Positions 21,624 through 22,800 are shown, counted from the stretch's first letter. The stretch: DNA of 64,000 nucleotides from Candidatus Omnitrophota bacterium (GCA_021735655.1 JAIPGM010000007.1:1-64000); one strand, 5' to 3'. Numbers and translations: made by a program. Notes: generated from the letters alone by a model not told the origin.

Positions 21624-21701
21624 TGGTCGGGAGAGTGGGATTTGAACCCACGGCCTCAACGTCCCGAACGTTGCGCGCTAGCCAAGCTGCGCTACCTCCC
21701 G
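21624..21701 (-). tRNA. tRNA-Pro (anticodon CGG)
   Basis: The minus-strand sequence CGGGAGGTAGCGC...CAACG-TTCGGGA-CGTTG...GTGGGTTCAAATCCCAC-TCTCCCG-A-CCA folds as a cloverleaf with anticodon loop TTCGGGA. The T-loop is GTTCAAATC and the CCA end is encoded. Confidence 0.8.
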
Positions 21702-22281: not shown

Positions 22282-22443
22282 AATATTTTAGTTTAAATAT
22301 TTTTAAGTTAAAGCGATTATATCACATATTTTTAAGTTACCCAAAAGAGAAAATAACTTAGTCGGGCTTTAAAAAATAGCTTCTCTAACTACCTGCTATA
22401 TAGGCATTTATGAGTACAATCTTTGCAAAAAAATAACCCCGCG

Positions 22444-22478
22444 CCTATTGAAGCGCGGGGTCGAAATTTCATCGATGT
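22444..22478 (-). terminator. intrinsic terminator downstream of the lysine-rich micro-ORF
   Basis: The minus strand reads CCCCGCGC-TTCAATAG-GCGCGGGG followed by TTATTTTTTT: an 8-bp GC stem, an 8-nt loop and a T-run. Confidence 0.6.
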
Positions 22479-22527
22479 TTTTATTCGTAAGAAGTTAAAC
22501 AAAGGTTCTATTACCTTCGTCTATCAC

Positions 22528-22599
22528 TTATTTCTTTTTTTTCTTTGCTGCTTTTTTCTTTGCAGGTTTTTTCTTCTTTGCTGCTTTCTTCTTTGCCAT
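22528..22599 (-). CDS. 23-aa lysine/alanine-rich micro-ORF (MAKKKAAKKKKPAKKKAAKKKKK); not in ORF track
   Basis: ATG at 22599..22597 and TAA at 22530..22528. A strong RBS (GGGGGGTGA) lies 7-8 nt upstream. A putative promoter TTGACA-N17-TAAATT sits at 22684..22656 and an intrinsic terminator about 50 nt downstream. The plus-strand 71-aa track ORF over this region is its antisense artefact. Confidence 0.45.
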   Translation of the reverse strand: MAKKKAAKKKKPAKKKAAKKKKK

Positions 22600-22800
22600 G
22601 AAAATCACCCCCCTTTTTTATTCTCAACACTTTGTTAAGAAATACCTTATAATTCAATTTAACAAACTTATCACTCAATGTCAACACATTTTCGTGTTTT
22701 TTTTGATTTTTTAATGCGACTTAAATTTTTTGAAATTGCTATTCCGAAAAATTATTAGTTGAATTATTTTTCAAAGTCATTAAAAATGACTAAAAAAATA

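Follow-up and report, generated by a model that had tools for sequence, protein, structure and literature searches.

Small lysine-rich polycations that bind nucleic acids are a known kind of molecule, and it is to this kind that we tentatively assign the product of the micro-gene described here. The tails of histone H1 and the chlamydial protein Hc2 are rich in lysine, alanine and proline. Judged by composition, the nearest described systems are chlamydial Hc2 (HctB) and Hc1 (HctA), together with H1 tails and the tails of bacterial nucleoid proteins such as mycobacterial HupB and AlgP. These resemble the peptides discussed below in that lysine and alanine are interspersed with proline, threonine or valine spacers, arginine is almost absent, and the low-complexity repeats, of the AKK, AAKK or PAKK type, change the length by whole repeat units; for Hc2, lysine-rich pentamer repeats are described in a protein of 165-237 aa (PMC2848022). 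The 23 distinct peptides that we have collected show the Lys/Ala-rich repeat composition with few Arg residues that marks Hc1 and Hc2, their carriers likewise lie in or near the PVC group, and by analogy one would expect electrostatic binding and condensation of DNA. The difference is one of architecture: Hc1, Hc2, HupB and AlgP are proteins, or have tails, of ~125-240 aa that include, or are attached to, a conserved domain, whereas here the polycation is a free, domainless peptide of 16-26 aa. Protamines, the C-terminal domain of H1 and the tail-only H1 of kinetoplastids offer another parallel, as very small or tail-only polycations that neutralise the charge of DNA. However, protamines are Arg-rich and eukaryotic, with no evolutionary link to the peptide, which is in turn far shorter than any H1.

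By size, the nearest systems are bTHX, bL37 and eL41. These three, together with bS22 and bL36, are 24-38 aa long; like the peptide, they are highly basic and come from short genes that stand alone and often escape gene callers, and they are highly expressed, as we would expect of the micro-gene; but they have a mixed Arg/Lys composition with His and aromatic residues, and their length is fixed. The thrL, hisL and pheL leaders of transcription attenuators are, like the micro-gene, short ORFs in which one amino acid predominates and past which an intrinsic terminator lies. In contrast to these leaders, no antiterminator is visible here, the downstream gene is unrelated to lysine, is served by a promoter of its own and is not the same in the two phyla, and the peptide sequence itself is conserved.

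The locus lies in a 64,000-nucleotide stretch of Omnitrophota DNA (hereafter the window), between the genes for RsfS (PF02410) and riboflavin synthase, ribE (PF00677) (Table 1). A sequence-only reading had placed there a stand-alone micro-gene for a 23-aa lysine/alanine peptide with a promoter, a G-rich ribosome-binding site and a terminator of its own. All of these elements are present where it had located them, and their independence from the flanking genes is strongly supported by the sequence and by the relatives; only the terminator needs amending, as its hairpin does have 8 G-C pairs and a T-run, but in a stem of 12 bp rather than 8. The promoter, TTGACA-N17-TAAATT, scores 10/12 with a TG extension in addition and is the top sigma-70-like site within the 1.7 kb scanned, where the terminator is also the sole one found. 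Transcription probably starts near 22649, and a leader of ~50 nt separates the promoter from the Shine-Dalgarno sequence, whose counterpart in relatives is presumably complementary to the 3' tail of 16S rRNA. The 520-nt gap between rsfS and ribE has no called gene in the public contig (Logan run SRR12088349), and the micro-gene has been missed by the annotation sources checked. The micro-ORF is the sole short Lys/Arg-rich ORF of the 64-kb window, the expected count for such an ORF with a Shine-Dalgarno sequence being 0.01 in a first-order Markov simulation of the window. Because the unit recurs in the same slot in relatives, the comparison of sequences indicates that it is not a product of chance.

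Past the micro-gene terminator, ribE has an extended -10 element of its own, which recurs in five relatives (L002, L003, L004, L010 and L012); an Rfam scan revealed no FMN riboswitch upstream of ribE. A tRNA-Pro(CGG) gene directly follows ribE in the window, and a tRNA occupies the matching position in L005, L034 and L035.

Table 1. Features of the micro-gene and its surroundings in the window, and the peptides encoded by relatives that were reached through neighbouring genes
Feature	Position	Strand	Basis
Coding sequence, 23 codons and TAA, product MAKKKAAKKKKPAKKKAAKKKKK (ATG begins at 22599; TAA at 22530..22528)	22528..22599	minus	sequence; frame kept in relatives
-35 hexamer TTGACA	22679..22684	minus	promoter scan; recurs in relatives
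Extended -10 TGtTAAATT, 17-nt spacer from the -35 (hexamer TAAATT at 22661..22656)	22656..22664	minus	promoter scan; relatives
5'UTR hairpin UUCUUAACA / UGUUGAGAA, then unpaired A-rich linker	22621..22641	minus	folding
Extended Shine-Dalgarno AAGGGGGGTGAT, ATG 4 nt downstream; AAGGAGGTGAT in relatives	22604..22615	minus	sequence and relatives
3'UTR hairpin UAGACGAAGGU ... ACCUUUGUUUA	22496..22523	minus	folding
Conserved 3'UTR motif CTTCTTACGAATAAAAA	22478..22494	minus	comparison of relatives
Intrinsic terminator, 12-bp stem (8 G-C), 4-nt loop, T-run (stem-loop 22462..22435)	22425..22462	minus	terminator scan
Extended -10 of ribE, TGTGATATAAT	22316-22326	minus	
tRNA-Pro(CGG) gene	21624-21701	minus	
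L002 peptide MAKRRKAKKRKTAKKKKK			
L003 peptide MAKKKKAAKKKKTAKKKKK			
L004 peptide MAKKKKATKKKAAKKKKK			
L005 peptide MAKKKAAAKKKTATKKAAKKKKK			
L034 peptide MAKKKPVKKAAKKKVAKKKVAKKKKK, rsfS-ribE slot, RsfS 58% identity			
L035 peptide MAVKKKKAAKKKTTKKKAAKKKKK, rsfS-ribE slot, RsfS 56% identity			
L036 peptide MAKKKAPAKKPAKKKKK, ParA 77% identity			
L037 peptide MAKKKAAAKKKTAKKKK, ParA 71% identity			
L038 peptide MAKKAAAKKPAKKTAKKKK, ParA 67% identity			

The micro-ORF is conserved in related genomes in position, frame and sequence. A search of the GTDB species genomes with the RsfS protein yielded four Omnitrophota-type MAGs with RsfS 50-64% identical (two of them labelled 'uncultured Planctomycetia'), and all four (L002-L005) have an intact Lys-rich micro-ORF, of the form MAKKK...KKKK, 100-200 nt past rsfS and before ribE. 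No Lys-rich micro-ORF of this family is present in four Firmicutes loci that the search also returned. A short Lys/Arg-rich ORF flagged in the Firmicutes loci L006, L007 and L009 (MRKREAYEKPSVKRKKKSEAARKRK..) resembles a segment, internal or C-terminal, of the ribosomal protein bS21 and was rejected as a relative of the micro-gene. Among four more contigs picked by RsfS similarity alone (L032-L035), L034 and L035 have an intact ORF of the same form between rsfS and ribE; the other two (RsfS 49-52%) have no Lys-rich micro-ORF within 10 kb, and their rsfS-ribE slot is filled by an 85-aa HypA-like gene (PF01155; 10428-10685 in L032 and 10461-10718 in L033). The rsfS-ribE micro-ORF is therefore present in six of the eight Omnitrophota relatives reached via RsfS, that is, selected without reference to the ORF. 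The carriers keep the whole unit: -35 and -10, 5' hairpin, A-rich linker, Shine-Dalgarno sequence, 3' hairpin and terminator. TTGACA is found upstream in nine more Omnitrophota-type loci (L002-L005, L010, L012, L028, L034 and L035), and TTTG(T/A/G)TAAATTA is common to all Omnitrophota relatives at the -10, the carriers sharing a TTTGnTAAATTA -10.

A broader view came from a scan of metagenome DNA with the pattern GGTGAT, 2-5 nt, ATGGCNAARARRARA, 24-51 nt, AARAARAARTAA, in which the reading frame was not enforced. It returned 22 loci, three of which proved to be the N-termini of ordinary proteins of 89-191 aa and were set aside. The other 19 are in-frame micro-ORFs of 16-24 aa composed of K, A, R, P, T, V and G alone, except for L021, which has D and E too. 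The M16-rsfS-[ORF]-ribE synteny is repeated in 5 of the 19, and the remaining loci come from genomes of 29-67% GC and have other gene contexts. In a high-GC group, which we assign to the Phycisphaerae (Planctomycetota) from the NCBI names of close ParA homologues, the micro-ORF lies after a DUF58 gene and/or directly before a gene for a ParA-like ATPase. When four contigs were sampled by ParA similarity alone (L036-L039), the micro-ORF was found between DUF58 and ParA in three (L036-L038, ParA 67-77% identical), including one, L038, that would have escaped the DNA pattern. These three also have GGAGGTGAT, a TAA stop and a terminator-like hairpin past the ORF, and TTGACA stands upstream in them as well as in the Phycisphaerae loci L011, L014 and L017. 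The fourth contig, L039 (ParA 62% identity, in a different neighbourhood), has no such micro-ORF. As the micro-gene is absent from the syntenic slot in L032, L033 and L039, it is not universal even inside these lineages.

Several single loci from this collection deserve a brief description. Just past the micro-ORF TAA of L015 (~496-535), the +1 frame contains a stretch, ATKRKAAKKKQP*, that has the appearance of a leftover from a Lys-rich ORF once longer, or duplicated. The acidic-spiked variant of L021 (2849-2920; MAKKKDEKKKKDKKKKKKDKKKK) stands just after a gene for polyphosphate kinase 2 (PPK2, 1891-2730) whose product has the N-terminus MAKKKSKTKKK. Similar micro-ORFs occur in AT-rich contigs of unassigned taxonomy (L013/L016/L027, L023 and L025), one example being MAKKKVAKKKVAKKKK, which adjoins a UvrD helicase gene; in L025, an NMD3-family neighbour hints at an archaeal or candidate-phylum origin. 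Since low-complexity sequence cannot prove homology, the likeness between the Omnitrophota and Phycisphaerae peptides could be partly convergent.

The pattern of variation in these sequences indicates that the micro-ORF is very probably a real protein-coding gene. In an alignment of 18 peptides Met1, Ala2 and Lys3 are invariant, and the ORF closes with a run of Lys. Indels in the family are of whole codons, and TAA serves as the stop codon in each of the nine loci reached via neighbour genes, including those of 55-61% GC. Variable columns at codon positions 1, 2 and 3 number 6, 9 and 15 of 23 in the Omnitrophota alignment and 6, 5 and 13 of 21 in the Phycisphaerae alignment, and Ala codons switch among GCA, GCC, GCG and GCT with the amino acid constant. 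There is no excess of AAG over AAA (AAG makes up 7 of the 15 Lys codons in the window ORF, vs. 0.46 in the window's long ORFs); it is only the arrangement of the two codons, breaking up the A-runs, that is non-random. The A-runs are at most 8 nt long in 20 of 20 distinct coding sequences (P ~5e-5 on shuffling each gene's AAA and AAG codons, a value to be taken as indicative because the sequences are related). We read this cap as probable selection against transcriptional or translational slippage, which fits a product whose frame matters and argues against regulatory sliding; the suggestion of the sequence-only reading that ribosomes sliding on consecutive Lys codons could be regulatory is thus contradicted. 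The same reading had dismissed a 71-aa plus-strand ORF as low-complexity antisense, and rightly so: the antisense frames in relatives vary from 17 to 74 codons, with no common start, and the ORF is a compositional artefact, open because of composition alone.

The untranslated regions are conserved to differing degrees. The 5'UTR hairpin is found in all seven relatives folded, with sequences that differ (e.g. CCCGAC/GUUGGG, CCGAU/GUCGG); RNAalifold gave no consensus structure for a MAFFT alignment of the 5'UTRs, because MAFFT misaligned the hairpins, and the covariation is one seen by eye only. The 3'UTR extends ~65 nt from the stop codon to the terminator. The AAGGU/ACCUU stem of its hairpin (AAGGT/ACCTT in the DNA of carriers) recurs in L002, L003, L004 and L012, and in L028 it is visible in the sequence but absent from the predicted fold. 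The motif CTTCTTACGAATAAAAA is identical in L002, L003, L020 and L031 and similar in L004 and L010, and CCCCGCG...CGCGGGG, or a close variant of it, forms the terminator in Omnitrophota-type relatives and in L036. The whole micro-gene transcript folds better than shuffles (z = -4.35), with the 5' hairpin, the 3' hairpin and the terminator all independent in both the MFE and the centroid folds. With Rfam 15, tRNAs alone reach threshold in the window region and six relatives; the window's matches to anti-hemB, Thr_leader and ClpQY_promoter are sub-threshold noise that arises from the terminator hairpin.

Two further observations concern the 3'UTRs. CTTCTT/CTTCCT motifs recur in them, in the window within the conserved motif and in Phycisphaerae loci in the first 10-20 nt past the stop. 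Their sequence complements that of AAGAAG Lys codons and, in part, that of the Shine-Dalgarno element; pairing with either is unproven (mean z ~-0.5 vs. shuffles, p = 0.04-0.09, from non-independent sequences). L037 (4614-4810) and L038 (4720-4910) have in common a 3'UTR of ~190 nt in which the terminator is preceded by a conserved block, GGGGGCCAnCAGGTGAnAnGCCTGTACGGAATTCACAAGACTCGCCG; this shared region has no match in Rfam and may be an undescribed RNA element.

Lysine makes up 61% of the residues in the 23 distinct peptides and alanine 24%, followed by T/V/P (8%) and R (1%); acidic and aromatic residues, His, Leu/Ile, Ser and Cys are absent, and the Lys+Arg count ranges from 9 to 17. Arg is nearly absent even in carriers of ~60% GC, and K/(K+R) is 0.98 in the peptides vs. 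0.34-0.50 in neighbouring Phycisphaerae proteins, implying that lysine itself, and not merely positive charge, has been selected. For the tiny ribosomal proteins this ratio is 0.31-0.58 (three of the sequences used were validated by NCBIfam matches). Searches of the libraries gave no assignment: five family members matched no NCBIfam family at E up to 1-10; Pfam gave none at E up to 10, with the HMMER bias filter penalising low-complexity queries and the Hc1 model lacking a positive control; and a PDB sequence search gave nothing at E up to 10. Ten exact family peptides are absent from a collection of 15 billion proteins, and literature searches, with literal peptide strings included, found no description of such a peptide. 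As far as the libraries checked show, the family is undescribed.

The organization predicted for the transcription unit is supported both by the sequence and by comparison, and it suggests how the gene might operate. A near-consensus promoter would drive an mRNA of ~220 nt, transcribed on its own and translated efficiently, with the order protective 5' hairpin, unpaired A-rich leader, maximal Shine-Dalgarno sequence, 23 codons, TAA, 3' hairpin and strong terminator. Given the invariant Ala2, Met1 would be removed, to leave a presumably abundant, disordered peptide of ~2.4 kDa with a charge of ~+15. The window peptide has no hydrophobic, aromatic or acidic residues and no signal sequence; it would act in the cytoplasm through non-sequence-specific, electrostatic binding to polyanionic nucleic acid. 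Its probable role would be that of a counter-ion comparable to a histone H1 tail, chlamydial Hc2 or a protamine, neutralising and compacting the nucleoid, and it may coat RNA as well. We give about an even chance to this proposal, namely that the product of a highly expressed stand-alone gene is a des-Met oligolysine, which attaches to nucleic acid through its charge in the manner of an H1 tail; it draws on composition and analogy. The cationic, H1/Hc-like binder of the sequence-only reading thus stands as the best fit to the composition, with the binding itself expected by analogy. We favour a nucleoid role because of the Lys/Ala/Pro composition, the variation of length by repeat units and the ParA neighbourhood, and the two unrelated neighbourhoods, together with the gene's own terminator, argue for a function that stands alone.

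A peptide this short and of such low complexity could bind any polyanion, be it rRNA, polyphosphate or membranes, and the conserved Omnitrophota neighbour, rsfS, which encodes a ribosome factor, points to the ribosome and away from the nucleoid. The main rival reading is a ribosome-bound peptide that would fill an rRNA groove as bTHX, bL37, bS22 or eL41 do, whether as a tiny ribosomal protein not yet described or as a cofactor for ribosome stabilisation or hibernation. In size, in charge and in having a gene that stands alone, the peptide is similar to tiny basic ribosomal proteins already known; the micro-gene comes directly after rsfS in every Omnitrophota carrier locus, and its expression signals are as strong as is typical for ribosomal protein genes. 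Such proteins have repeatedly been revealed only by cryo-EM (PMC10618245, PMC10085706), and our literature search found no ribosome structure from a carrier organism. We nevertheless consider this option, also raised by the sequence-only reading, to be unlikely. The oligolysine peptides match none of the models for bL37, bS22 and THX (NF047428, NF047429 for the planctomycete bL37, NF047430 and TIGR04560), whereas control bL37, bS22 and THX sequences match their own models at E 1e-14 to 1e-19; variation between 16 and 26 aa by Lys/Ala units, with next to no Arg and no aromatic or His residues, is unlike peptides fixed in an rRNA pocket; the rsfS neighbourhood does not extend to the Phycisphaerae; and the micro-gene owns its promoter and terminator. 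With respect to the Phycisphaerae, one might also imagine a free basic peptide that partners the adjacent orphan ParA/MinD-type ATPase, stimulating it or modulating its binding to the nucleoid. Basic N-terminal peptides of ParB, MinE and PomX activate ATPases of this type, the micro-ORF is directly upstream of the ParA-like gene in L014, L015, L017/L022, L019 and L036-L038, ParA identity among those loci falls to 51%, and no ParB-like gene follows ParA in L036-L038. Such a partnership seems to us very improbable: the known activators use specific Arg/Lys residues in a defined motif and not a homopolymer-like stretch, a terminator-like hairpin lies between the micro-ORF and parA in L017, L036, L037 and L038, and the gene has other contexts too, adjoining rsfS and ribE in the Omnitrophota, with no ParA nearby, and elsewhere UvrD, PPK2 or a MutY-like gene (the last recognised by eye). 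Another reading is a polycation whose target is some other polyanion or surface, such as granules of polyphosphate or an anionic membrane, or else a peptide exported for antimicrobial or predatory ends. Both polyphosphate and membranes are bound by oligolysines, and the Omnitrophota have been proposed to be host-dependent; the PPK2 neighbour of the L021 variant would accord with a role at polyphosphate. We rate this group of functions as rather improbable, given that the L021 peptide, with its Asp and Glu residues, may not belong to the main family, that the pattern has no match in viral contigs and that there are no export or immunity genes nearby; the peptides have neither a signal peptide nor a hydrophobic face, which makes a membrane-active or exported role unlikely.

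The remaining alternatives place the function in the transcript. The sequence-only reading had allowed for a regulatory leader. In a leader of this type, the terminator, and hence ribE, would respond to how the Lys codons are translated, whether by way of tRNA-Lys supply, of pausing or of sliding on poly(A). The arrangement does resemble a classical attenuator, with a terminator between a biosynthetic gene and a short ORF in which a single amino acid prevails, and the Rfam Thr_leader model gives a weak match, but its 16.2 bits are far below the 55-bit threshold. Such a leader is disfavoured, because the downstream gene varies by phylum, being ParA in the Phycisphaerae, and because ribE, which is unrelated to lysine, has its own conserved promoter past the terminator in the window and in those relatives whose intergenic region was read. 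No conserved antiterminator pairing was seen by eye, the short A-runs are the opposite of a sliding device, and conservation goes beyond the Lys codons to the Met-Ala start, the Ala/Pro/Thr spacers and the terminal Lys run; we accordingly lend the leader very little credence. It is just as hard to believe that the RNA is the functional product, an A/G-rich sRNA acting, for example, as a sponge of the (ARN)n Hfq type or for another protein, with an ORF that is incidental or weakly translated. The Lys codons are indeed ARN triplets, the UTRs contain conserved elements (the two hairpins and the 3' motif) and the transcript folds better than expected, as noted above. Yet no Rfam family is found in the window unit or its relatives, the ORF is common to both phyla whereas the UTR motifs are not, and the Shine-Dalgarno sequence, ATG, frame and TAA have been kept in genomes of 29-67% GC, among which indels comprise entire codons and third positions drift.

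If the micro-gene is translated, its product would be among the shortest and most extreme of conserved bacterial proteins. A family of this sort would be invisible to annotation, because its members fall below the length limits of gene callers and would be destroyed by trypsin in proteomics. The locus illustrates how consecutive Lys residues can be specified while slippery poly(A) is avoided, and it shows that genes with fewer than 30 codons can be found by comparing intergenic regions; the peptide itself is a concrete, readily synthesised object for testing. Some planctomycete nucleoids, such as those of Gemmata, are strongly condensed (PMC3440768). A widespread hidden family is a possibility, and we would put forward, tentatively and with some doubt, that the Omnitrophota, the Phycisphaerae and probably other lineages encode an oligolysine 'protamine', or protein polyamine, as a major polycation, which, in cells that are small or densely packed, may condense the nucleoid, keep ribosomes together, or both. 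Such a peptide would be a novel kind of component in the chromatin or ribosome biology of bacteria from the PVC-related phyla.
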